Shown: piece by piece, positions 2,999 to 34,874 of the stretch | Layout: each line of letters begins with the position of its first letter | Numbering within the stretch: the stretch's first letter is position 1 | Assembly: GCA_022711315.1 (NCBI GenBank) | Contig: JAKLFG010000005.1 | Span: forward strand, 7,037-71,036 | DNA from: a bacterium | GTDB lineage: Bacteria > UBP6 > UBA1177 > JAKLFG01 | Direction: 5' to 3' | Length of the DNA: 64,000 bases | Translations under genes and position numbers: made by a program | The notes under the pieces: generated by a model | What the model was told of the DNA's origin: nothing | The model's input: only the letters and a program-made list of their open reading frames with translations | Database searches by the model: none

Positions 2999-5329
2999 AT
3001 GAAAAAGACCCTGTTCCTGTCGCTTCTTTCCTTCGCGTTCCTGCTCGGCGCCGCCGATGTCGCCGCGCCGAAGATCGCCTTCAAGGGGACCGTCCCCTCC
3101 TTCGTCACCGACCTCACGGTGACCCTGCCGGCCGACGAGGCGGCGGTCACCCGCTGGCTCTCCCGCGAATTCCTGCCGACCTACCTGCCCCGCACCGCCG
3201 CGAAACCGACGCTCGCGCGGCATATCGGCCACGACGGTCACCGCCTGTTCCGGTACGGCTACACGGTCGGCGGCGTGACGGTCGAGGGGGCGTTCACCAC
3301 CGTCGCCCTGCGCGACGGCACGGTGTACCGCGTGACCAACTCGCTCGGCGCGATACCCGCCATCGACACGACGCCGGTCCTCTCGGCCGCCGACGCCGCC
3401 CGCGTCGCCTTCACCGCGCAGACCGGCCGGTCCATCCTCTCCGCGCCGCGTCACTGGGCCGAGAAGCGGATCGTGCGGCACCACGGCTCGTGGCGTCTCG
3501 TATGGAAAGTACGGCTGACCCCGGTGTCGCTCGCCGACGGCCGGTTCTACTACATCGACGCCCGCGACGGCGCCCTGCTCGGCGGCGGTGATGACACGCG
3601 GTTCGCCGAGCCGACCGACATGGCCAAGGTCTTTGAGACCAATCCCAAGCGGAACAAGACCCCCATCGAGGTCGAACTGCCGTGGATCGATCCGACCGAC
3701 GGCAAACTGACCTCGGCCCCCGACGAGGAGGGGGTGCGCGCCGTCGTTGCCGCCAACTGCCCCGACGAGGGGAAGACCATCGAGGTGACCGGGTACGGCA
3801 CGCTCGCCATCTGCACCGCGAAGCAGATCGCCGACAAGAACGAGAACGGCAGTTTCATCTACGAGGACTGGGACGACGGAGTGGCGATGAAATTCGACGC
3901 CGCCGACATCTATCCCGAGGTCTCGATGTACTACCACGCCTCGAAGATATACAAGTTCCTGCGTGACCTCGAACTCGACGGGTTCCACTACTTGAGCGGC
4001 CACAATGTCGGGTCGGCCAATCCGAGCCCGCTCATCGTCGTCGCCAACTTCCAGATGCCCACGCAGGGAGGCGGCCTCTCGCCGATGGACAACGCCTTCT
4101 TCTCGGCGGTCCAGCCCGGCTTCACCGACATCTTCTTCGCCGATTTCCCCTATCAGGGCGACATGCTCGTCTTCGGGCAGGGGACCAAGACCGATTTCGC
4201 CTATGACGGCGATGTGATATACCACGAGTTCGGCCACGCCGTCGAGGCGGCGACCTCAGGGCTCTCCCCGATGCCCTATGCCGACAAGTACGGCTTTTCG
4301 AACATCCCCGTCAGCATCAACGAGGGGATCGCCGACAGTTTCTCCTTCATCATGTCGCAGGACGCCTGCCTCGGTGAATACGCCTCCGAAGGGCTCGCCT
4401 CGCTGGCGGGCTACGAGAAGGGCGAGGAGGGGTTCTACTGCATGCGCCGCGCCGACAACGGCAATCTCGTCAACGAGGACTTCACCGGTGAGTCGCACGA
4501 GGATGGACTTCCCTTCGTCGGGATGAACTGGGCGCTGTATCAGGAGGGGCTCAAGAACGACCTGACCCGCGAGGACTTCGCGCGACTCTTCCTCCGGATG
4601 CTCCTCTCGTTCGCCGACCCCGAGGCAACTCCTCAGGATTACGCCGACATCATGCTTTCCGAGATCGAGAACGACCCGAAGTTCAAGCCGCTCAAGGATA
4701 CCGTCGCGACGCTTCTCGAAGAGCGTGGATTCAACGAACCGGCCCGCGCCCGCGACATCACCCGCCCGGTGACCTACATCATGTCGGGCGGCACCTCGTC
4801 GTCCTACGGCGCGCCGACCAGTTCCTTCACCGCCGATGTGGCGGGTGACGAGATGAAGATCGCCCCCGCCTATGTCCAGTTCTACTTCGATATGCCGGCC
4901 TGCATGGACACGCTTACGGTGACCGGTCGCGGCGTATCGACCTCGCAGTCGGGCGGCACCGCGCCCCGCTACTGGCTGTTCGTCCGCAAGGATGCGCCGG
5001 TGACCTACACCATCGACGATTACCCGGTACCGGTCGCGCTCGACACGGTCGTCGAGCCGGTGGACAACATCTACGAGATAAAGAACCTTGAGGCGGGCGC
5101 CCGCTACTACCTCCATTTCGTGAATGTCGCCTCTTCCGAAGGGGTCGTCGCCTACATCTCGGCGAACGCGACCCGTTCCAGTGCCGACCAGTGCGTCGAG
5201 AACCCCGATGATGTCGTGCCCGACGACGAGACGACCGACGAACTCGCCGACGCCGACACGGTCGTCGTCCCCGATGAGGCCGACACGAAGAAGGGGTCGT
5301 CGGGCGGCTGTTCGCTGACCTTGTTCTAA
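2999..5329 (+). CDS. Secreted zinc metalloprotease, gluzincin type (thermolysin/fungalysin-like), with acidic C-terminal linker
   Basis: Signal peptide MKKTLFLSLLSFAFLLGAADVAA. HEFGH at 4223-4237 followed by INEGIADSFSF (third-ligand Glu motif). C-terminal DDVVPDDETTDELADADTVVVPDEAD linker. Confidence 0.75.
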   Translation: MKKTLFLSLLSFAFLLGAADVAAPKIAFKGTVPSFVTDLTVTLPADEAAVTRWLSREFLPTYLPRTAAKPTLARHIGHDGHRLFRYGYTVGGVTVEGAFTTVALRDGTVYRVTNSLGAIPAIDTTPVLSAADAARVAFTAQTGRSILSAPRHWAEKRIVRHHGSWRLVWKVRLTPVSLADGRFYYIDARDGALLGGGDDTRFAEPTDMAKVFETNPKRNKTPIEVELPWIDPTDGKLTSAPDEEGVRAVVAANCPDEGKTIEVTGYGTLAICTAKQIADKNENGSFIYEDWDDGVAMKFDAADIYPEVSMYYHASKIYKFLRDLELDGFHYLSGHNVGSANPSPLIVVANFQMPTQGGGLSPMDNAFFSAVQPGFTDIFFADFPYQGDMLVFGQGTKTDFAYDGDVIYHEFGHAVEAATSGLSPMPYADKYGFSNIPVSINEGIADSFSFIMSQDACLGEYASEGLASLAGYEKGEEGFYCMRRADNGNLVNEDFTGESHEDGLPFVGMNWALYQEGLKNDLTREDFARLFLRMLLSFADPEATPQDYADIMLSEIENDPKFKPLKDTVATLLEERGFNEPARARDITRPVTYIMSGGTSSSYGAPTSSFTADVAGDEMKIAPAYVQFYFDMPACMDTLTVTGRGVSTSQSGGTAPRYWLFVRKDAPVTYTIDDYPVPVALDTVVEPVDNIYEIKNLEAGARYYLHFVNVASSEGVVAYISANATRSSADQCVENPDDVVPDDETTDELADADTVVVPDEADTKKGSSGGCSLTLF

Positions 5330-5377
5330 ACGACTTTTTCCTCTCTCTTCTCGATACCCCCCTAAAAAGCCTCTTTC

Positions 5378-5405
5378 GGCGTTCTGACCGATAAGGAAGA
5401 ACGCC
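5378..5405 (+). terminator. Possible stem-loop downstream of the protease gene
   Basis: GGCGTTCT (5378-5385) pairs with AGAACGCC (5398-5405) across a 12-nt loop, about 50 nt after the stop. No U-tract. Confidence 0.2.
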
Positions 5406-5517
5406 TCTCCCGTTCTCCCTCACGCACCGGGACGATTCCTTAAAAAAAACATGGCACTGTGGGCTTGAAGGGCATCGATGGCGATGCGTGTGAACAACCG
5501 AGATGATGGAGGCGACC

Positions 5518-7413
5518 ATGAAAAGGATCGTAGGGTTGGCGGCGGTCGTTACGGCGGCGGCCGTGGTCTTCTTCGCCTGCAAGGTGGGCGAGATGGCGAA
5601 AGAGGCGCACGAGAACCCCGACGAGGGGCTCGTCAGGCTCGATGACAGCGGTATCGTTAAGAAGATCGAGGAGTTGGAAAAGTCAAAAGCGAAAGAGGAA
5701 CCAGCAGAGACCGCAAAGAGCGACGGCGACAAGAAGGAACGCAAGGCGGCGGCGCAGGGTACGACGCGGAAGGCGCTGGACAGCGTCGCCGCCGCTCAGG
5801 GCGTCCACGGTACCGGCATGGGGGGCGGCAACTCGGCGTTTTCTAGCGGTGGACTCGGCACGCGCGGTGTCGGTGCATCGGGGCAGGGCTATGGCTACGG
5901 CTCGATGACCTTCCATGCCTACGGCCGCGCCGCCGGTGTGGCGGTGGCGCAGTCGTACACCTACGACACCGAACAGTATGAAGGAAAAGAGGAGGAAGGC
6001 TTCAAGTCGGCGCTCCACGATCCGCTCTCGACCTTCTCGATAGATGTCGATACCGCGAGTTACGCCAATGTGCGGCGGTTCCTCACTACCGATCAGTTGC
6101 CGCCCGTCGACGCGGTGCGCATCGAGGAACTGGTCAACTACTTCTCCTACCGGTATCCCGAACCGGCGGGCGATGCGCCCTTCTCGGTGACCACCGCGCT
6201 CGCCGACTGTCCGTGGGCGCCGGGACATCTTCTGCTGCAGGTGGGGCTCAAGGGGAAGGAGGTGTCGGTCGCGCAGATGCCGCCCGCGAACCTCACCTTC
6301 CTCATCGATGTGTCGGGTTCCATGAACGCGCCGAACAAACTGCCGCTTCTCCAGAAGGCCTTCGCCCTGCTGGTGAAGGAACTGCGGCCGCAGGACCGCG
6401 TCGCGATAGCGGTCTATGCCGGCGCCGCGGGGCTCGTCCTGCCGCCGACCGGCGGCGGCGACAAGCGGAAGATACAGGACGCCATCGCCAACCTCCGGGC
6501 GGGCGGCTCGACGGCGGGCGCCGAAGGGATAGAACTCGCCTACAAGACCGCCGGTGAGATGTTCGCCGCGAACGCCAACAACCGCGTCATCCTCGCGACC
6601 GACGGCGACTTCAATGTCGGCATCTCCGACGATGCGACGCTGGTGAAAATGATCGAGGAGAAGCGCAACAAGGGCATCTACCTCTCGGTCCTCGGGTTCG
6701 GCATGGGGAACTACAAGGACGCCAAGATGGAGAAGCTGGCCGACAAGGGGAACGGCAACTACGCCTACATCGACGGCCTGCTCGAAGCGAAGAAGATCTT
6801 CGTGAAGCAACTCGGCGGAACGCTGCTGACCATCGCGAAGGATGTCAAGATACAGATAGAGTTCAATCCCAAGGCGGTCGCCTCCTACCGGCTCATCGGC
6901 TACGAGAACCGGCGGCTCGCCAAGGAGGATTTCAACGACGACAAAAAGGATGCGGGCGAGATCGGCGCGGGCCACACCGTCACCGCGTTCTATGAGATCG
7001 TGCCGGTCGGCGCCGAAGAGAACCCGGCGGTCGATCCGCTCCGATATCAGGCGCAGGCCGACACCACGGCGGCCGACAGCGGAGAGTTGGCGCTCGTGAA
7101 ACTGCGCTACAAGGCGCCGAAGGAGGATGTGAGCAGACTCATCACCCGTACCGTGGCGGTCTCTTCACGCCGGGCTTTCGCCGAGGCGCCGGAGGATATC
7201 CGGTTCGCGGCGGCGGTGGTCGGGTTCGGGATGTTGCTCAAAAGGTCGCCCTACGCCGGGAAGTTCGACTGGAAGGCGGTCACGGCGGCGGCGAAGGGGG
7301 CCAAAGGGGTCGACGACGAAGGGTACCGGGCCGAGTTCCTGCGGCTTGTCGAGAAGGCGGAACTGCTTTTCGACGCGGCGGGACGATCGGCCGATGCCGG
7401 ACAGGAACACTAA
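5518..7413 (+). CDS. von Willebrand factor type A domain protein (YfbK-like), lipoprotein/secreted
   Basis: LSTFSIDVDTASYANVRRFL N-terminal module and MIDAS motif FLIDVSGSMN, with the C-terminal extension typical of YfbK-type proteins. GGAGG lies 6 nt upstream of ATG 5518. Signal with FFAC lipobox-like site. Confidence 0.8.
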   Translation: MKRIVGLAAVVTAAAVVFFACKVGEMAKEAHENPDEGLVRLDDSGIVKKIEELEKSKAKEEPAETAKSDGDKKERKAAAQGTTRKALDSVAAAQGVHGTGMGGGNSAFSSGGLGTRGVGASGQGYGYGSMTFHAYGRAAGVAVAQSYTYDTEQYEGKEEEGFKSALHDPLSTFSIDVDTASYANVRRFLTTDQLPPVDAVRIEELVNYFSYRYPEPAGDAPFSVTTALADCPWAPGHLLLQVGLKGKEVSVAQMPPANLTFLIDVSGSMNAPNKLPLLQKAFALLVKELRPQDRVAIAVYAGAAGLVLPPTGGGDKRKIQDAIANLRAGGSTAGAEGIELAYKTAGEMFAANANNRVILATDGDFNVGISDDATLVKMIEEKRNKGIYLSVLGFGMGNYKDAKMEKLADKGNGNYAYIDGLLEAKKIFVKQLGGTLLTIAKDVKIQIEFNPKAVASYRLIGYENRRLAKEDFNDDKKDAGEIGAGHTVTAFYEIVPVGAEENPAVDPLRYQAQADTTAADSGELALVKLRYKAPKEDVSRLITRTVAVSSRRAFAEAPEDIRFAAAVVGFGMLLKRSPYAGKFDWKAVTAAAKGAKGVDDEGYRAEFLRLVEKAELLFDAAGRSADAGQEH

Positions 7414-7428: not shown

Positions 7429-8826
7429 ATGAACGCTGAAAGGAAACGGCTGCTCTACGATCTTCCCCTCATACCGGTCCCGCAGCGGGGGGAGTTGTCG
7501 GCGGCGCGGAGTTACCCGGAGATCCGGGTCATCTGGAACGGGACGCTGATGGAGGTCATCGCGGCACGCGGCGCAGTGAGCGTCGGCCACGCCGAAGCGG
7601 CCGACATCGTGGTGGACGAATCGGTGTGGGACGAGCCGCTCCACGAACTCATCACGGTGCGCGACGGTACGGCGACGCTCCGGCTGACCCGCGCCATGAA
7701 CGGACGGATCTACACGCCGAGAAGTTCGCGCGAGGTAGCGGCGTACCTCGATGAGCGGGAAGAGACGCTCGAACTGGGACCGGGGTGCGGCGCGGTGCTT
7801 GAGTTCGGGCCGGTCACCGTCGTCATCCGGATGACGGGGCGGGAGAAGGTGCGGCCGGCGCCGTTCCTCGAACAGGTGGACACCGCCGCGCTCTCGCTCT
7901 TCGCGCTCCTGTTCATCGTCGGACTGCTTCTCATCAACGCCATCATCGAGACGCCGCCCATCGAGACCGATTTCGTCGTGGTGCCGATCGAAGGCGGGTT
8001 CAAGCCGATACCGTTCGACGAGGTGCCGGTCGAGGAGCCGGAACCGGTGAAGAAGGTCATCCTCAAGCGCGACAACGACGGGCTCCATGACGCGGCGCAG
8101 GCCCGCAAGGCGCTCGGCGAAGAGGGGCGCGTCGGGTCGAAGACGAGCAGGGTCGCCAACGCGCAGGGTTCGTCGCGCAAGGCGCTCGAGGACAAGGTCA
8201 CCCGCAGTTCGGGCATCGTCGGGGCGCTCACGAGCGGCGCGCAGGCCTTCGACCGCATCTTCGGCGGCGGCGGGCTCGGCGCGGGGCTTGAACGGACGCT
8301 CGGGTCGGTGACCGGGCTCGCGGGGGTCGATCAGTTCGGCACCGGCGGGCTCGGGACGCGCGGTTTCGGCACCGGCGGCGGCGGCAACGCGCTCACCATC
8401 GGCGGACTCCACACCCGCGGCAAAGGGGGCGACGGCTCGACCGTCGGCTACGGCATGGACAAAGGGCGGATAGGCGGCAAAACGCTCGCCGCCATCGACG
8501 CGGGCGGCGGGCAGGCGGTCATCATGGGGGCGCTCGACCGCGCCGTCATCGATTCCTACATCAAGCGGAACATCGCCAAGATACGCTGGTGCTACGAGAA
8601 GGAACTCAACAAGAACGCGAACCTGTTCGGCAAGGTGGTCGTCAACTTCATCATCTCGAAGAGCGGTCAGGTCTCATCCTCGAAGGTCCAGCGCGCCTCC
8701 ATCCAGAGCGAGCCGGTCGAGACCTGCGTCGCCGATCAGATACGCAAGATACGCTTCCCCGCGCCCAAGGGGGGCGGCATCGTCGTGGTCACCTATCCCT
8801 TCGTCTTCAAGAATGCGGCGAACTGA
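7429..8826 (+). CDS. AgmX/PglI C-terminal (TonB-C-like) domain protein with Gly-rich linker
   Basis: C-terminus IDSYIKRNIAKIRWCYEKELNKNANLFGKVVVNFIISKSGQVSSSKV...ETCVADQIRKIRFPAPKGGGIVVVTYPFVF matches the AgmX/PglI-type domain. Central TM segment and GGLG repeats. AAGGAGG RBS. Confidence 0.6.
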   Translation: MNAERKRLLYDLPLIPVPQRGELSAARSYPEIRVIWNGTLMEVIAARGAVSVGHAEAADIVVDESVWDEPLHELITVRDGTATLRLTRAMNGRIYTPRSSREVAAYLDEREETLELGPGCGAVLEFGPVTVVIRMTGREKVRPAPFLEQVDTAALSLFALLFIVGLLLINAIIETPPIETDFVVVPIEGGFKPIPFDEVPVEEPEPVKKVILKRDNDGLHDAAQARKALGEEGRVGSKTSRVANAQGSSRKALEDKVTRSSGIVGALTSGAQAFDRIFGGGGLGAGLERTLGSVTGLAGVDQFGTGGLGTRGFGTGGGGNALTIGGLHTRGKGGDGSTVGYGMDKGRIGGKTLAAIDAGGGQAVIMGALDRAVIDSYIKRNIAKIRWCYEKELNKNANLFGKVVVNFIISKSGQVSSSKVQRASIQSEPVETCVADQIRKIRFPAPKGGGIVVVTYPFVFKNAAN

Positions 8827-12699: not shown

Positions 12700-14325
12700 A
12701 TGTTCAGACCGTTCGTCGGTTCCCTCCTGCTCGCCGCGCTGACCTTCCTGTTCGGCGGCTGCGGGCTCATCAACGCCATCACCACCACAGCCCACGAGAG
12801 CGAGACCATCAGCGTCGCGACCGTGTGGGAGCATGACCATGTCATCAGCGGCACGCTCACCGTCAACGCCCCGCTCACCATCCGGGCCTGCGCGAACATC
12901 AAGATGGAGAACGGCGGGTCCATCGTCGTGCGCGACAACGGCTCGATCATCGCCATCGGCTCGGCCGACTGCGACACCCGCTTCACCTCCTCCAAGACCA
13001 TCCCCTCGGCGGGCGACTGGGACGCCATCTACATCTACAACACCGCGTCGGCCGGCAACGCCTTCGAGAAGGTCACTTTCGAATACGGCGGCGGGAACTA
13101 CGGCGTGCTGTGGATCGAGGACAACGCGTCGGTCCGCGTCGACGCCTCGACCTTCGCCCACATCAAGGGGACGGCGGTCATGATCGAGGACGGCGCGACG
13201 ATAGGCAGTTTCGTCGGCAACTCCTTCAAGAGCATCGGCGGCAACCCGGTCTGGACCTCGGGCAACATCGTCCCGTCGCTCTCTCCCGTCATCACCACCG
13301 ACCTTACCGCCGCGGTCAACCGCGTCCACATCGACGGCACGACCGTCACCGAAAGCGGCACCTGGAAGGATCTCGGCATACCCTATGAGATCGACGGCAT
13401 CAATTTCCACGCCACCGTCACCGTCGAGGCGGGGACCACGATAGCGGTCATGCCCAACGAGATCGTCAATGTCAGCGAGAACGGCGCGCTCATCATGGTC
13501 GGGACCGTGGCCCAGCGTATCACCGTGACGAGCGCCAAGACCACCCCGAAGGCGGGCGACTGGGATTATATCGGCATCTACAACACCGCCTCCGAGGACA
13601 ACCGGTTCGAATATGTCGATTTCAAGTACGGCGGCAGCATGTACGGCATCTTCTGGGTCGAACAGGGCGCCACGGTCTCCTTCGACAACTGCCTGTTCAG
13701 CGACATCACCGGCCCCGGCATGGAGATGAAGGATGTCACGCTCGGCAGTTTCACCGGCAACTCGTTCAAGAAGATATCGGAATATCCTCTCGTCGTGACC
13801 GCGAGCGTGGTCCCCTCCCTGTCGCCCATCACCACCGCCGAACTCACCGCGGGCAAGGACCGCGTCCACGTCGTCGGCGGCTACACCGAGATCGGCGGTC
13901 TCTGGAAGGAACTCGGCCTCCCGTACGAACTCGAGGGACTCAGTTTCCGGTCGCCGGTCACCGTCGAGGCGGGAACGACCATCCTGATAGAGCCCAACGA
14001 GATCATCAACATCGCCGACAACGGCTCGCTGATACTCGACGGCACCGCCGACAAGCGGATCACCGTGAAGAGCAACAAGACCACGCCGGCCGCGGGCGAT
14101 TGGAACTATTTCGGGTTCTACAACACGAGCAGCAACGAGAACCGGTTCTCCTACGCCGACATCATGCACGGCGGCTCGGGCAACTACGGCCAGATCTGGG
14201 TCGAGCAGGACGCGACGCTCACGCTCGAACATGTCGTCTTCTCCGAGGGCGACACCTGTGACATAGACGCCGACGAGGACGCGATACTCAATGTGACCGA
14301 CACCACCTTCGTCGCCTGCCCCTGA
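12700..14325 (+). CDS. Lipoprotein with three tandem ~180-aa right-handed beta-helix-like repeat units
   Basis: Lipobox FLFGGCG. The unit ...(S/K/A)AGDW(D/N)...Y(I/G)(Y/F)YNT(A/S)S...F(E/S)Y...GG recurs at about nt 13009, 13549 and 14086 (period 540 nt). Confidence 0.6.
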   Translation: MFRPFVGSLLLAALTFLFGGCGLINAITTTAHESETISVATVWEHDHVISGTLTVNAPLTIRACANIKMENGGSIVVRDNGSIIAIGSADCDTRFTSSKTIPSAGDWDAIYIYNTASAGNAFEKVTFEYGGGNYGVLWIEDNASVRVDASTFAHIKGTAVMIEDGATIGSFVGNSFKSIGGNPVWTSGNIVPSLSPVITTDLTAAVNRVHIDGTTVTESGTWKDLGIPYEIDGINFHATVTVEAGTTIAVMPNEIVNVSENGALIMVGTVAQRITVTSAKTTPKAGDWDYIGIYNTASEDNRFEYVDFKYGGSMYGIFWVEQGATVSFDNCLFSDITGPGMEMKDVTLGSFTGNSFKKISEYPLVVTASVVPSLSPITTAELTAGKDRVHVVGGYTEIGGLWKELGLPYELEGLSFRSPVTVEAGTTILIEPNEIINIADNGSLILDGTADKRITVKSNKTTPAAGDWNYFGFYNTSSNENRFSYADIMHGGSGNYGQIWVEQDATLTLEHVVFSEGDTCDIDADEDAILNVTDTTFVACP

Positions 14326-30977: not shown

Positions 30978-31673
30978 ATGGCACGCGAACGGATACTGGT
31001 GGTCGACGACGAGCAGGACATCCTTGAACTGATCCGCTACAACCTGTCGCGCGAAGGGTATCAGCTCGACACGGTGCTGAGCGGCGAAGAGGCGATCAAG
31101 ATCGCCCGCGACCGTCACCCCGACCTCATCATCCTCGACCTCATGCTCCCCGGCATCGACGGTCTGGATGTCTGCCGCCTGCTCAAAGGCGAAACGCGCA
31201 CGGCCCACATCCCCATCATCATGCTGACGGCCAAAGGGGAGGACAGCGATGTGGTGACCGGGCTCGAACTCGGCGCCGAGGACTACATGACCAAGCCCTT
31301 CAGCCCCAAGGTGCTCATCGCGCGGGTCCGCAACATCCTGCGACGCAAGACGCGGATCGCCGAGGAGAAAGAGGTCAAGATGGTGATCATCGAGAATATG
31401 AAGATAGACCCGTCGAAGCATAAGGTGACGGTGGGGAAGGAGGAGGTCGATCTCACGGCGACCGAGTTCGCGCTCCTGATGTTCCTCGCCAAGCGGCCCG
31501 GCTGGGTCTTCACCCGCAGCCAGATCATCAACGGCGTTAAGGGCGACGACTACCCGGTGACCGACCGTTCGGTCGATGTGCAGATACTCAACCTGCGCAA
31601 GAAACTGGGCGATATGGGCGAATACATCGAAACGGTGCGCGGCGTCGGCTACCGGTTCAAGGAACTCAACTGA
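30978..31673 (+). CDS. OmpR/PhoB-family response regulator (likely the Pho regulator)
   Basis: ILVVDDEQDILELI...DLIILDLMLPGIDG...YMTKPFSPKVLIARV receiver domain plus a winged-helix C-terminus (ETVRGVGYRF). GGGAGG lies 6 nt before ATG 30978. Confidence 0.85.
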   Translation: MARERILVVDDEQDILELIRYNLSREGYQLDTVLSGEEAIKIARDRHPDLIILDLMLPGIDGLDVCRLLKGETRTAHIPIIMLTAKGEDSDVVTGLELGAEDYMTKPFSPKVLIARVRNILRRKTRIAEEKEVKMVIIENMKIDPSKHKVTVGKEEVDLTATEFALLMFLAKRPGWVFTRSQIINGVKGDDYPVTDRSVDVQILNLRKKLGDMGEYIETVRGVGYRFKELN

Positions 31674-31683
31674 GAGGCCATCC

Positions 31684-32367
31684 ATGCAACGATTCGACGG
31701 CTTTTCCAAAGAGACGCTCGCCTTTTTCGCGGGACTGAAAAAGAATAACTCCAGCGCATGGTTCGATGCGCACCGGAAGGAGTACGAGCAGTTCGTGAAA
31801 AAACCGACGCAACTGTTCGTGCAGGCGATGGAGGAGCCGCTGATGCTTCTCGACAGCGGCATCAACGCGGTGCCGAAGGTCAACCACAGCATTTTCCGGC
31901 TCAACCGCGACACCCGTTTCTCGAACGACAAGACCCCGTATAAAACGAATCTCGGCGTCTGGTTCTGGAGCGGCGTCCGGCCGCGGATGGAATGCAGCGG
32001 CTTCTACCTGCAGGTCGAGAACGGCGAAGTGATGCTCGGCACCGGGATGTATATGTTCCCCCGCGATCTTATGTCGGCCTACCGCGACGCCGTCGCCGAT
32101 CCGAAAAAGGGGACACTGCTCCTGAAGCTGGCCGGGAAGATGGAGAAAGAGGGCTACGGTATCGGCGGCGAGCACTACAAGAAGGTGCCGGCCGGTTATG
32201 ATAAGGAACTGCCGCAGGCGCGGTTCCTGCGCTACAACGGTATCTACGCCGGGTTCGAGACAAAGGTCCCCAAGGATTTCTACAGCGCGAAGTTCGTCGA
32301 CTGGTGCTTCCTCCATTTCCGGAAGACGCTGCCGCTCCACCAGTGGCTCAAGGATACGCTGGGATAG
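31684..32367 (+). CDS. DUF2461 (TIGR02453) family protein
   Basis: FSKETLAFFAGLKKNNSSAWFDAHRKEYEQFVKKP...FRLNRDTRFSNDKTPYKT is the DUF2461 signature. Confidence 0.8.
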   Translation: MQRFDGFSKETLAFFAGLKKNNSSAWFDAHRKEYEQFVKKPTQLFVQAMEEPLMLLDSGINAVPKVNHSIFRLNRDTRFSNDKTPYKTNLGVWFWSGVRPRMECSGFYLQVENGEVMLGTGMYMFPRDLMSAYRDAVADPKKGTLLLKLAGKMEKEGYGIGGEHYKKVPAGYDKELPQARFLRYNGIYAGFETKVPKDFYSAKFVDWCFLHFRKTLPLHQWLKDTLG

Positions 32368-32378
32368 ACCCTCAACAA

Positions 32379-32393
32379 TCCGGAAATTCCGGA
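32379..32393 (+). terminator. Palindrome after the DUF2461 stop (weak terminator candidate)
   Basis: TCCGGAAATTCCGGA, 12 nt after TAG 32365-32367. No clear U-tract. Confidence 0.2.
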
Positions 32394-32760
32394 TAGTTCA
32401 AAGAATGGATTCAGTTGTAAAGGGATTCTTTACATCTTGAGTTTGTCGAAACACCTTTTACTAGGTCTATACAGCGGGGCGCTTGCGACAAAAACGGGGT
32501 AAAGCTCTTCCTATCCATCTTTACAGAACGGGGAAAAGGTCTGTTTGCAGGGCGATTTTCGACAACCGCTACTATGCGGCGGAAAGGTAGGTCGCCAACA
32601 CATTGATATCATTGTTATTTTCTGACTGTCGCAAGCGGGGCGCTGCAAACAGTCGAAAATAGCCTTTCGACACACCGAGAAGATTGCTTAATATATTGTT
32701 ATTGTTGGAGATTAGCGTTCTATCGAGTTCGCGAAAAGCGGAATGCCCAATGATTACAAG

Positions 32761-32798
32761 AGTTTCCGTTTCGCATATCAGGCCTTTATGTCTCCTGC
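32761..32798. repeat. Left copy of a perfect 38-bp direct repeat (CRISPR-repeat-like)
   Basis: AGTTTCCGTTTCGCATATCAGGCCTTTATGTCTCCTGC, identical to 33448-33485. Contains the stop and last 6 codons of the lipoprotein ORF. Confidence 0.95.
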
Positions 32799-33416
32799 AG
32801 GATTGGGCTTGGTAGCCCGATAGAGAATCCTGATGTCTGCAAGGGAACCGTCATCACGACGAAACATTTCGGATTTTAGTGTGTCTGTTTCGGTTTGATA
32901 AGTGAAAACGAAACACATCACACTAGTGCATCCCCCATTTTCTACTGTGCCGATCAGGGGGTTGGCGTCCGCGGGGATAATAATGAGTTGGAAGAACTTG
33001 TCTTCAGAAAAGTAACAGCTTTTGGATTCAGGATCATATCCAGTATAGATGGTGGTATGTTCCTGATAACCACCGGGATTATTATAAACCCAGTAGCCGT
33101 CCATCATCTGGATTTCGGGCAGACAGTCGACCACATCTTGGTCAGGTTCTTCATCTGCCAGGATCTGATCGTCATCTACCGGCTCGTTATCCATCGGTTC
33201 GGTGTCGGTCTGGATGTTGTCCGTCTGGACATCATCCGGGATTTCGTTGTCCACCGGCTCGACATTGTCTGTCGGCTCGGTGTCATCCACCACGACGCTG
33301 TCGTCGGTCGGCTGGTTGTTGTCAACCGGGGGGTTGTTTTCCTCACCGCCACAGGCGATGAAGAAGATTGAGACGAAGGCAAAGAAGGCAACGAAAAAGG
33401 CGTTCTTGGCGTTCAT
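32778..33416 (-). CDS. Lipoprotein with acidic linker, unknown function
   Basis: FVSIFFIACGGEENNPPVDNNQPTDDSVVVDDTEPTD lipobox plus linker. AAGGAG RBS. The 3' end (AGDIKA-stop) lies inside the repeat. Confidence 0.6.
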   Translation of the reverse strand: MNAKNAFFVAFFAFVSIFFIACGGEENNPPVDNNQPTDDSVVVDDTEPTDNVEPVDNEIPDDVQTDNIQTDTEPMDNEPVDDDQILADEEPDQDVVDCLPEIQMMDGYWVYNNPGGYQEHTTIYTGYDPESKSCYFSEDKFFQLIIIPADANPLIGTVENGGCTSVMCFVFTYQTETDTLKSEMFRRDDGSLADIRILYRATKPNPAGDIKA

Positions 33417-33447
33417 GATAGTTCTCCTTATAGGATGTTGATAGTAA

Positions 33448-33485
33448 AGTTTCCGTTTCGCATATCAGGCCTTTATGTCTCCTGC
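33448..33485. repeat. Right copy of the perfect 38-bp direct repeat
   Basis: Base-by-base identical to 32761-32798; identity ends abruptly on both sides. Confidence 0.95.
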
Positions 33486-33491
33486 TCTTGG

Positions 33492-33519
33492 ACTTTAACC
33501 GTTAAACTTAATTGTGCAA
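33492..33519 (-). promoter_or_regulatory. Sigma70-like promoter reading into the right repeat copy
   Basis: Minus strand: TTGCAC (33519-33514), 16-nt spacer, TAAAGT (33497-33492). The predicted start is about 33484-33486, at the repeat edge. Confidence 0.35.
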
Positions 33520-33528
33520 CCATCTGAA

Positions 33529-34203
33529 TTAACTCGCCTTGCCCATCTTCGATTTCAAGAAGCCTATATGCTCCTCAAGTTTGAGTATCGCATTTTCGAC
33601 CTCCTCGACATTATTTAAGTCTTTGATTTTAATGGATATATTTCCGTTCTTCTCTTTCTCTCCCGCGCGCGTGCCTTCCTTATCCTTATTAAGTACATAG
33701 GTCTCGTACGCCCATCGGATGCCCTTCTTTTTCATCTTCTCGATCCTTACCTTGCTTCCCTCAACTGCCTTATATGTCTTGAGATATTGGCTGACTAGAC
33801 TTTCCGAATAACCGGCGAGTTCCGCTATCGCTCGCTGTATCATCCCCAGTTCCGCAAGTTTGAAGAAACTTTCCGCGATCTCCCATGCGTTCAGATCGTC
33901 CCGCTGGAGGTTTTCGATAAGCGAAAGTTCTCGGGTCTTACTTTCCGACTCTACATCGGAAATAATGGCCGGTATGGTTTCACGGCACAGTTGCACGAAT
34001 GCGCGATACCGACGATGACCGGCGATAATGAAATAGCCACTGCCATACGGCGACTTCCGCACCATGATCGGTTGCATGAGTCCGTGGGTGGTAATGCTCT
34101 TGGCAAGAGCGGCCACCCGTTCAGGGTCGATTTCCTGCCGCGGTTGACCGGGATCTTCGGTTATTTCAGAAAGAGGAAGGTCTTTCACTTCAAAGTTTTG
34201 CAT
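33529..34203 (-). CDS. ParB/Srx-fold N-terminal domain protein with HTH (ParB-like)
   Basis: GLMQPIMVR...IIAGHRRYRA...SLIENLQRDDLN (ParB boxes), then HTH-like MIQRAIAELAGYSESLVSQYL. AGGAGG RBS. Confidence 0.8.
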   Translation of the reverse strand: MQNFEVKDLPLSEITEDPGQPRQEIDPERVAALAKSITTHGLMQPIMVRKSPYGSGYFIIAGHRRYRAFVQLCRETIPAIISDVESESKTRELSLIENLQRDDLNAWEIAESFFKLAELGMIQRAIAELAGYSESLVSQYLKTYKAVEGSKVRIEKMKKKGIRWAYETYVLNKDKEGTRAGEKEKNGNISIKIKDLNNVEEVENAILKLEEHIGFLKSKMGKAS

Positions 34204-34286
34204 AGTTTTCGATGCCTCCTAAAAAATGGGAAAGTAAAAATATCCGAAGAACACCGCGTATTTCCGGCCTCCCTCGAAAATAACGG

Positions 34287-34315
34287 TTGACATTTCCCCG
34301 TTGATACCTCAATCT
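34287..34315 (+). promoter_or_regulatory. Candidate promoter of the small-ORF/RT-Cas1 operon
   Basis: TTGACA (34287-34292), 17-nt spacer, weak CAATCT (34310-34315). Followed by a ~170-nt leader containing GTTTC-N7-GAAAC (34353-34369) and GTGCGG-ACC-CCGCAC (34383-34397). Confidence 0.25.
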
Positions 34316-34487
34316 GGAGAAAGAACCCGATGCTCATTTTATCTTTTCTGATGTTTCAGTCAAGGAAACCGTCGGGCTTCTTGTGCGGACCCCGCACCGG
34401 GGTGTCGCGAGGCGGGTCCAGCCGGCGAAATATGGACCCGAACGGTGCAACACGAAAAAACAGTAACTACTTTTGTGAGGTGGTGTT

Positions 34488-34874
34488 ATGCCGTTGTGTA
34501 CCGTTACCGGTATCGAGATGATGCTCAATGAGGCCTATGTACTTGATCTGTATGAGATTAAGCGGGCCGTCCGTGAGTGCAAGAACCGGCTCGCCGCCTT
34601 GGAGCGTCTTGAGCGCGACTACGGCACCCGCGATGTTTTGGAGCGGAAACAGCCCGGCACCGGCCGGATCGAGAAGGCGGTGTTCTATCGGCTGGTTTGT
34701 GAAAGCGCCGCCGCCGAACTTTCCCGCGTCTATCCCAGCCGTCGATTGTTCCTGAGATTCGATGAGTTCCTGTACCTGCGCCGCCGCCGCATCGAAGACT
34801 CGGCATGTCGCGGACAGAATGATCAGCGCCGCGAAAGTCCGCACGATGAGGGAGGCGGCCATGAACAAACATGA
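34488..34874 (+). CDS. 128-aa unknown protein, translationally coupled to the RT-Cas1 gene
   Basis: GAGGTGG RBS at 34477-34483. Predicted helical/coiled (LDLYEIKRAVRECKNRLAALERLERDYG). The stop TGA 34872-34874 overlaps ATG 34861 of the next gene (ATGAACAAACATGA). Confidence 0.5.
   Translation: MPLCTVTGIEMMLNEAYVLDLYEIKRAVRECKNRLAALERLERDYGTRDVLERKQPGTGRIEKAVFYRLVCESAAAELSRVYPSRRLFLRFDEFLYLRRRRIEDSACRGQNDQRRESPHDEGGGHEQT

Follow-up and report, generated by a model that had tools for sequence, protein, structure and literature searches.

The 64,000-nucleotide (nt) stretch of contig JAKLFG010000005.1 analysed here, referred to as the window, raises a simple question: how did a single lipoprotein gene come to stand between two identical copies of a short repeat, R, beside a gene encoding a reverse transcriptase (RT) fused to Cas1? 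We consider it probable that the locus is a one-cassette member of a gene-capture system resembling CRISPR, in which reverse-transcribed whole transcripts are inserted by Cas1-type integration and R is duplicated. A preliminary description of the window had proposed such a repeat-insert-repeat unit made by RT-Cas1. The unit itself is supported by an empty site and by recurrent arrays, and the role of the enzyme by association and mechanistic fit; as enzyme, leader and repeat were found together in all inspected loci, the proposal is judged to be the best explanation.

Filled and empty repeat sites

Precise insertion with duplication of R is observed in three pairs of filled and empty alleles, the first of which involves the window itself. 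An exact search of the 64-kb window bore out the reported pair of identical 38-bp copies of AGTTTCCGTTTCGCATATCAGGCCTTTATGTCTCCTGC, at 32761-32798 and 33448-33485, and no third copy was found there at up to three mismatches (0 matches in 100 shuffles). The extent given earlier needs a small correction: the 38th common base is not kept in the sister locus and may be shared by chance, and the functional repeat is probably 37 nt long, reading GTTTCC...CTGC on the plus strand. The unit is made up as follows:

32761-32798, plus strand: leader-side repeat copy, containing the final six codons and stop of the cassette open reading frame (ORF)
32799-33447, minus strand: cassette of 649 bp, with a 31-nt 5' untranslated region (UTR) containing AAGGAG and the lipoprotein coding sequence
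32778-33416, minus strand: lipoprotein ORF of 212 amino acids (aa), with its ATG at 33416, a signal peptide and the lipobox FFIAC/GG
33448-33485, plus strand: RT-Cas1-side repeat copy, 43 nt downstream of the stop of a ParB-like gene

The description of the insert as 649 bp with an AAGGAG ribosome-binding site and an ORF completed by the left repeat agrees with the sequence and with the reading of the ORF. It is the leader-side copy that encodes the final AGDIKA and the TGA; on the gene strand this copy reads GCAGGAGACATAAAGGCCTGATATGCGAAACGGAAAC(T). Within the cassette the coding sequence is cut a few codons before the end seen in homologues, and it has neither a stop of its own nor a terminator. 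The GC content of the cassette is 49 % (47-51 % for the insert region) against about 60 % around it. In the protein the signal peptide with its lipobox is followed by an acidic linker and, at the C terminus, a domain of some 110 aa; no Pfam, NCBIfam or PADLOC family was matched. Its closest homologue, from a metagenome-assembled genome of Candidatus Magasanikbacteria, is 40 % identical locally and 35 % identical over the full alignment. A paralogue had been considered as the source of the insert, but only distant homologues were found, and the phage and plasmid collections gave no match.

The repeat-gene-repeat structure was recovered in independent metagenome assemblies and is therefore no assembly artefact. 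All 19 contigs from the species of the window carry the same cassette or are broken inside R; of the alternative insert alleles envisaged earlier, an empty one exists in the sister lineage and none was seen among these conspecific contigs. Contigs of the species and of the sister lineage end or start in or just past R (L001 at 6870-6883, L005 at 1-27 and the end of L095; L numbers are handles for contigs and loci). Such breaks are expected for assembly at a repeat, but they could hide alleles with other cassettes. Further copies of the repeat were found neither in the window nor in the metagenome and GTDB-representative collections. In those collections a degenerate 27-mer built from the window version and that of the sister contig L004 had 0 matches; hence, the window repeat does not come from a known array, and the window genome is not among the representatives. 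Scans of the window gave no CRISPR array, no tandem repeat of the R kind and no Rfam match.

Around 25 full-length homologues of RT-Cas1 were found in the protein collection. The closest, 89 % identical, is encoded on contig L004, where the gene order is that of the window from the DUF2461 gene to the pst operon, minus the lipoprotein gene. L004 has a single copy of the repeat, which differs from the window repeat at 7 of 38 positions. Positions 32443-32795 of the window align to 746-1099 of L004 (75 % identity) and 33449-34400 to 1066-2017. Thus, the two flanks overlap on the one repeat of L004, and the difference bears the mark of an insertion that duplicated the repeat, or of its exact reversal. 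The identity of the two copies around a cassette of foreign GC content, in spite of the 7/38 divergence in the sister lineage, fits duplication in place. About 76 nt of the window, at 32367-32442, have no counterpart in L004, whose conserved region starts right after the DUF2461 stop.

The other two pairs show the same arrangement. L065 has two copies of R around a 1200-bp cassette and L068 has one; the flanks, identical at 99.4-99.6 %, overlap on the lone R of L068. The pattern is repeated by L064 against L067 and L058. Apart from these pairs, L047 and L051 are 99.7 % identical over 11.4 kb beginning exactly at R and unrelated past R, while L043 and L047 have both flanks in common and no cassette in common. 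No cassette common to related arrays was found from which the polarity of acquisition might be read.

Arrays, cassettes and a leader-like element in the RT-Cas1 family

The loci were collected with an alignment of the N-terminal domain (N-domain) of RT-Cas1 as the query; GTDB representative genomes contributed 23 of them and metagenomes 57. The family (about 1165 aa, about 80 loci) is spread over Nitrospirota, Acidobacteriota, Desulfobacterota, Bacteroidota and Burkholderiales, among others, and all its loci come from uncultured bacteria. Exact and near-exact repeat searches upstream of RT-Cas1 revealed R, 36-37 nt long and always on the RT-Cas1 strand, in each locus with enough upstream DNA. 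Thirteen distinct arrays contain 2-6 perfect copies of 36-38 nt at a spacing of about 450-2160 bp, and a single R lies at the corresponding place in some 25 further loci. Arrays outside the window include the following:

L054: six R copies, about 500 bp apart
L019, L024, L030, L041, L043 and L047: three or four R copies each
L028, L032, L063, L064 and L065: two R copies each

The CRISPR-like size ascribed to the window repeat recurs in the family, whose arrays of two to six copies have perfect repeats of 36-38 nt, within the range of about 23-47 nt of the near-identical direct repeats of CRISPR arrays. In place of uniform short spacers of about 21-72 nt, the inserts measure 449-2158 bp and each has a gene. 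On the gene strand R starts with GU, except for the window copy (GC), often holds a stem-loop and ends in GAAAC, GAAAU or GAAAG (GGAAAC, GUAAAC or a near variant). Some copies of R hold -10-like hexamers without a consistent -35/-10 pair, and a promoter scan of the window found none in R.

The anatomy of the inserts was studied in 24 cassettes. Each is made up of one ORF, and all lie in the same orientation, on the strand opposite to RT-Cas1. The 5' UTR is 1-79 nt long in 20 of them, mostly with a ribosome-binding site, which leaves no room for a promoter. At the end abutting R a terminator-like hairpin with a T-run was found in 19 cassettes, compared with 9 % of random positions, and judged by eye the stem ends 3-12 nt before R in most. 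A signal peptide is encoded by 23 of the 24 ORFs and a lipobox by at least 14; the identified products include a porin and a multihaem cytochrome. The remaining cassette encodes only the C-terminal part of an outer-membrane beta-barrel protein (434-803 of the 838 Pfam profile positions), and another the N-terminal part of a protein of this kind (positions 1-129). These gene fragments, stored in cassette 1 of L043 and in L064, point to promiscuous capture and not to the movement of evolved cassettes. Two cassettes of L054 are 93.6 % identical, with 5' UTRs of 1 nt and 33 nt; the L054 cassette at 3006-3475 has the 1-nt 5' UTR and hence no ribosome-binding site. A diversity-generating retroelement was considered and rejected: substitutions between paralogous cassettes are ordinary, strand-symmetric and transition-rich, and not adenine-specific with template and variable repeats.

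The history of one source gene could be followed. Close copies of the L065 cassette protein (99 % or partial) are encoded on several short contigs, and on three of these (L091, L101 and L102) the gene lies outside any R context. The sequence upstream of it in L101 and L091 is unlike that of the cassette, and in L091 and L102 the sequence after the terminator T-run is unrelated DNA that contains a GIY-YIG gene; the homology between cassette and native copy stops at the T-run. Three contigs carry the gene at the same R locus, all ending at the T-run, with the following 5' ends:

L099: -28 relative to L065, the extra bases matching the native upstream sequence
L065: 0 (reference)
L100: +8, further downstream than L065

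The T-run is 8 or 9 nt long in cassettes and 7 in the native copy, and L103 has one extra base. The L065-type gene has been captured repeatedly at one site, with ragged 5' ends, a fixed 3' end and an empty allele, L068. The transcript-like limits of the cassettes, their fixed 3' and ragged 5' ends, the missing promoters and the gene fragments together indicate that the intermediate was probably RNA, copied from its 3' end. Thus, the mRNA-sized substrate suggested by the preliminary description has found support in the terminators of 19 of 24 cassettes, in the short 5' UTRs and in a source gene with three 5' ends.

The side of the array away from RT-Cas1 is also conserved. In the window it is represented by one element:

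32621-32760, plus strand: leader-like conserved non-coding element, flanking the outermost repeat

Of 34 loci, 21, covering all phyla, have a palindrome, TCGAAAAT-N4-TTTTCGA, at a distance of 108-112 nt from the outermost R, and it is accompanied by more conserved blocks in the alignment of loci. The window version of the palindrome is TCGAAAATAGCCTTTCGA (32653-32670, 108 nt from the repeat); the element also holds the GTCGCAAGCGG block (32628-32638) and, immediately ahead of the repeat, bases resembling TAATGATT. On the plus strand, TCGACA-16-TAATAT at 32667-32694 resembles a promoter; it overlaps the palindrome region and points into the array. With its palindrome and blocks beside the first repeat, as in a CRISPR leader, the element presumably acts as a leader. 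The sole hint of polarity comes from L019, where a degenerate R sits at the array end far from the leader, as in CRISPR arrays: the copy nearest RT-Cas1 (6543-6570) is without six bases (CATAAT) that are found in the three perfect copies. The palindrome had 0 matches in viral contigs. Window positions 32441-32680 contain extra copies of the TCGACA/GTCGAAA motif, for example at 32446-32456, 32483-32492 and 32558-32567, together with an incomplete inverted repeat whose arms, cagcggggcgcttgcgac / gtcgcaagcggggcgctg, occupy roughly 32473-32490 and 32629-32646; such sequences might bind proteins or form a structured RNA.

The enzyme, its proposed action and the rival accounts

Besides the leader-like element and R, the system proposed here comprises RT-Cas1, which has an FtsK/HerA-like N-domain, a small conserved ORF and a divergent gene that varies between loci. 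The genes and domains of the window locus are:

31576-32367, plus strand: DUF2461 gene, followed by 393 nt of non-coding DNA up to the repeat
33529-34203, minus strand: ParB_N-domain gene, divergent from RT-Cas1 and transcribed towards the array
34488-34874, plus strand: small ORF of 128 aa with N-terminal MxxCxxTGxE and RRLVC motifs, overlapping the RT-Cas1 start
34861-38352, plus strand: RT-Cas1 fusion of 1163 aa, its start overlapping the 128-aa ORF
34861-36015, plus strand: residues 1-385, FtsK/HerA/TrwB-like domain (predicted fold)
about 36016-37035, plus strand: residues about 386-725, RT of group-II-intron type with YADD (RVT_1 E = 1.9e-36; TIGR04416 306 bits)
about 37348-38349, plus strand: residues about 830-1163, Cas1 domain (Cas_Cas1 E = 1.8e-52)
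38366-38968, minus strand: PRiA4_ORF3-family gene, directly after RT-Cas1
beyond 38968: Ppnp and the pst operon

The most likely start of the RT-Cas1 gene is 34861. The PADLOC Cas1_IIIb model spans residues 392-1152, and the protein has the composition of RT-Cas1 fusions, a group-II RT with YADD followed by a Cas1 domain with its E/H/D catalytic residues. Y604-A-D-D607, E997, H1062, D1074 and E1077 were invariant in the 14 family members compared; hence, the catalytic residues of both the RT and the Cas1 domain are intact in the family. Residues 1-385 matched no sequence family, and a search of the plasmid collection with this domain gave no match. A model built from ten homologues (predicted local distance difference test score 78, predicted template modelling (TM) score 0.81) places it in the FtsK/HerA/TrwB/VirB4 ATPase fold (Foldseek probability 1.0, TM score about 0.5). 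The Walker A motif GK[ST] is absent from the domain throughout the family, and the modelled domain may have lost ATPase activity or may form an active site of a new kind; its invariant residues are D38, W62, D64, R68, E172, E192, E199, E202, H203 and H264.

No Cas2, Cas6 or effector family was found among neighbour genes in the window or in loci L004-L010, so that of a CRISPR-Cas locus, in which cas1 is accompanied by cas2 and usually by effectors, the Cas1 domain alone was seen. Almost all family loci that cover the DNA just upstream of RT-Cas1 have the small ORF in front of it; this ORF had no match in Pfam, PADLOC or NCBIfam and no PDB sequence above noise, and it was rejected as a candidate Cas2 for want of any detectable similarity to Cas2. 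The divergent slot is variable, and in other family loci an unknown protein of 285, 355 or 711 aa takes the place of the ParB_N protein; in the window a promoter-like TTGACT-16-TAAAAT lies at 34363-34336. The PRiA4_ORF3 gene is common to the window and L004, and tblastn found none in other family loci. The whole low-GC island is bordered by the pst operon and, at its other end, by the DUF2461 gene together with a PhoB-like regulator. Far from it, a 281-nt segment within 13355-14175 recurs 540 bp downstream at 72 % identity, with more 540-bp-spaced matches nearby; these repeats look like domains of a large gene unrelated to the R locus.

Cas1 integration duplicates the repeat that it attacks. 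Capture by RT-Cas1 would begin with the uptake of a terminated transcript, typically a short monocistronic mRNA for an exported protein, which the RT domain would copy from its 3' end. The Cas1 domain would then integrate the copy at R by staggered attack on both ends of R, and gap repair would duplicate R, as in CRISPR adaptation. There would be no ruler for spacer length, so that the insert would be the whole transcript or whatever part of it had been copied. RT-Cas1 as the responsible enzyme, RNA as the intermediate and this order of chemical steps are inferred. The proposed RNA intermediate, copied from its 3' end, agrees with the reported properties of the Marinomonas RT-Cas1/Cas2 enzyme (PMC11014452).

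Several observations weigh against capture by RT-Cas1. The link to the enzyme is an association within loci selected by RT-Cas1, a sample whose scope is arrays accompanied by that gene. No Cas2 was found in the neighbourhoods inspected, and Cas1 alone would have to make staggered cuts 36 nt apart. The window cassette is atypical, being 3'-truncated and ending at neither a terminator nor a T-run. In the L065 group, the differences in T-run length could be assembly noise, and the 5' end of the longest capture need not be a transcription start, only 9 nt of native sequence being available upstream of it. Nor does the mechanism account for the finding that almost all captured genes encode exported proteins (a signal peptide in 23 of 24); selection, the abundance and stability of such monocistronic mRNAs, or an enzyme located at the membrane could be the cause. 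Finally, the dyad arms of R look like the core of a tyrosine-recombinase site of the Xer/dif type, and many loci outside the Burkholderiales have a gene for an Xer-like integrase on the far side of the leader.

These last two points lead to the main rival, Xer-like site-specific recombination. In this account a tyrosine recombinase, be it the integrase gene product from beyond the leader or XerCD of the host, would use R as its core site, small circular cassettes would integrate and excise there, and RT-Cas1 would be otherwise employed. The inverted arms of R, imperfect and separated by some 6 bp, presumably resemble the XerC/XerD arms of dif sites. The integrase near the array, with Phage_int_SAM_1 and Phage_integrase domains, recurs in many loci, its gene in L006 lies between two R-like copies, and a circle carrying R would, once integrated, also leave R on both sides. 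However, no integrase was found within about 9 kb on either side of the window locus, nor in the fetched Burkholderiales flanks, and both have perfect arrays. Were recombination of this precise kind at work, all junctions should be identical and each mobile copy should carry an R, whereas three 5' junctions and one 3' junction were seen, and the native copy of the source gene has no R and loses homology at the terminator. Gene fragments serve as cassettes. The copies of R are identical within an array, unlike the attC sites of integrons, and they are so around the foreign cassette of the window despite the divergence of the sister repeat. Nor does the account explain how a new gene first gains R. 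It is therefore regarded as unlikely, though the integrase may still move the island or delete cassettes.

Some further repeats were noted beside integrase genes. In L006 (Bryobacteraceae) the two R-like copies around the integrase gene, 81 % identical, are at 6526-6561 and 8113-8148; three 58-nt repeats farther out (5278-6658), which look like 3'-end fragments of a LysR gene, bracket small genes including a HicB-like one and suggest tandem accretion at the attachment site of the island. L008 has 47-nt direct repeats at 6428-6474 and 7081-7127, 81 % identical and 653 bp apart, around a HicA/HicB pair beside the integrase; their sequence differs from that of the R site at 8426. It was also considered whether R might be the chromosomal dif site; this is unlikely, as the GC-skew peak of the window is near 44 kb and the L006 island appears to lie between duplicated LysR-gene 3'-end fragments.

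A second alternative retains Cas1 and dispenses with RNA: double-stranded DNA fragments would be integrated in the Cas1 manner, and the RT domain would be irrelevant to the inserts. Repeat duplication and a leader fit any Cas1 integration, and three or four cassettes, that of the window included, are fragments without terminators. Against this, most cassettes begin in short 5' UTRs without promoters and end at terminator T-runs, all 24 have one orientation, and the RT catalytic motif is invariant, which makes integration of DNA fragments less likely still than an Xer site. The mundane alternative of the preliminary description, duplication or homologous recombination between the ends of paralogous lipoprotein genes with a deletion in the sister lineage as the only event, could draw on the overlap of the left repeat copy with the 3' end of the ORF and on an empty L004 allele that might in principle arise by recombination between both copies, but it is barely credible, because L004 has the repeat without any lipoprotein gene (the 38-mer is therefore not simply the end of a lipoprotein gene family), the same architecture recurs across phyla around unrelated cassettes with other repeat sequences, and the repeat is found nowhere else in the window or in the genome and metagenome collections scanned.

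As to function, the genes kept in the arrays may give rise to envelope proteins, to antisense transcripts that start in the leader, or to both. A bolder reading, which is put forward only tentatively, is that of a heritable adaptive device that captures genes and stores whole messages, as proteins or as long antisense RNAs, and that would represent the first natural RT-made gene cassettes in bacteria, a step still lacking for integrons. RT-Cas1 would then record whole transcripts of invading mobile elements, or of the cell's own envelope genes, at the leader-proximal R. The stored proteins would act, for example, as exclusion-type lipoproteins, or antisense RNA would run from the leader promoter. 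The idea of exclusion arises because distant homologues of the L065 cassette protein (47-67 % identical) adjoin relaxase, coupling-protein and VirB9-like genes.

Significance and relation to known systems

The literature searched, which leaves most subscription journals outside its reach, gave no description of gene-sized inserts at RT-Cas1 loci and none of a site-specific bacterial route from mRNA to new genes. The recurrent RT-Cas1 gene-array system has thus apparently not been described so far. Should RT-Cas1 indeed write whole transcripts, bacteria would own a site-specific path from mRNA to new chromosomal genes, and a CRISPR adaptation enzyme would be in use beyond guide RNAs, showing how Cas1 behaves without a ruler for spacer length. 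Such an enzyme, placing kilobase RNA-derived DNA at a 36-nt site in nature, would be of interest for RNA recording and for the insertion of large cargo. It would also provide a testable model for the origin of promoterless gene cassettes, a question not yet settled for integrons (PMC3001079). Peat and freshwater metagenomes contain empty alleles as well as alleles filled once or several times, so that the process is already open to study at the population level.

The nearest relatives are the RT-Cas1(-Cas2) modules of type III and type VI CRISPR-Cas systems, as in Marinomonas mediterranea and Vibrio vulnificus. Both have a group-II-intron-type RT fused to Cas1, a repeat of 36-37 nt duplicated at each insertion, a leader-like flank and apparently RNA-derived inserts. 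They differ in that the inserts here are whole genes of 450-2160 bp and not about 35 bp, have one orientation and are missing from most loci, which have a single repeat; no Cas2, Cas6 or effector was seen, and an FtsK/HerA-like N-domain and a small ORF are added.

Integrons, with their IntI-type integrase and adjacent attI, likewise carry arrays of promoterless single-gene cassettes that vary between close strains, and a recombinase related to Xer is found near many of the present loci. How integron cassettes arise is unsolved, and one proposal invokes reverse transcription (group IIC-attC introns; PMC3001079). The window locus is nevertheless no integron: no integrase was found within about 9 kb of it, its repeats are identical and 36 nt long in place of the variable attC hairpins of 57-141 nt, and the 5' junctions in its family are ragged; many family loci are without an integrase, and each cassette tends to bring its own terminator.

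Casposons are self-synthesising elements with terminal inverted repeats, PolB and target duplications of 14-15 bp. They resemble the present system in Cas1-family integration without Cas2 or a CRISPR effector, in large inserts and in target duplication. Unlike them, the cassettes described here are passive, with one small gene each and no inverted ends (by eye, none at the ends of the window cassette), and the duplication of 36-38 bp takes place at a fixed site. Integrative mobile elements exploiting Xer (IMEX) and dif modules, in which XerCD precisely recombines a 28-bp dif-like site carried by the mobile form, share short, dyad-symmetric direct-repeat sites that flank small inserts. The dyad arms are present in R, with a tentative likeness to dif; R is, however, borne by the element beside RT-Cas1 and is 36-37 nt long, and the imprecise, variable junctions and a native copy of a cassette gene without the site argue against membership in this group.

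As an analogy of mechanism only, the processed retrocopies made by long interspersed nuclear elements (LINEs) of eukaryotes may be considered. Those are inserted at dispersed sites with the help of an endonuclease, whereas the bacterial cassettes go to one specific repeat, would depend on a Cas1 domain and have no poly(A). In both cases, the copies of mRNA, or what are probably such copies in the bacterial arrays, are defined at the 3' end, variably truncated at the 5' end, without a promoter and bounded by a duplicated target.

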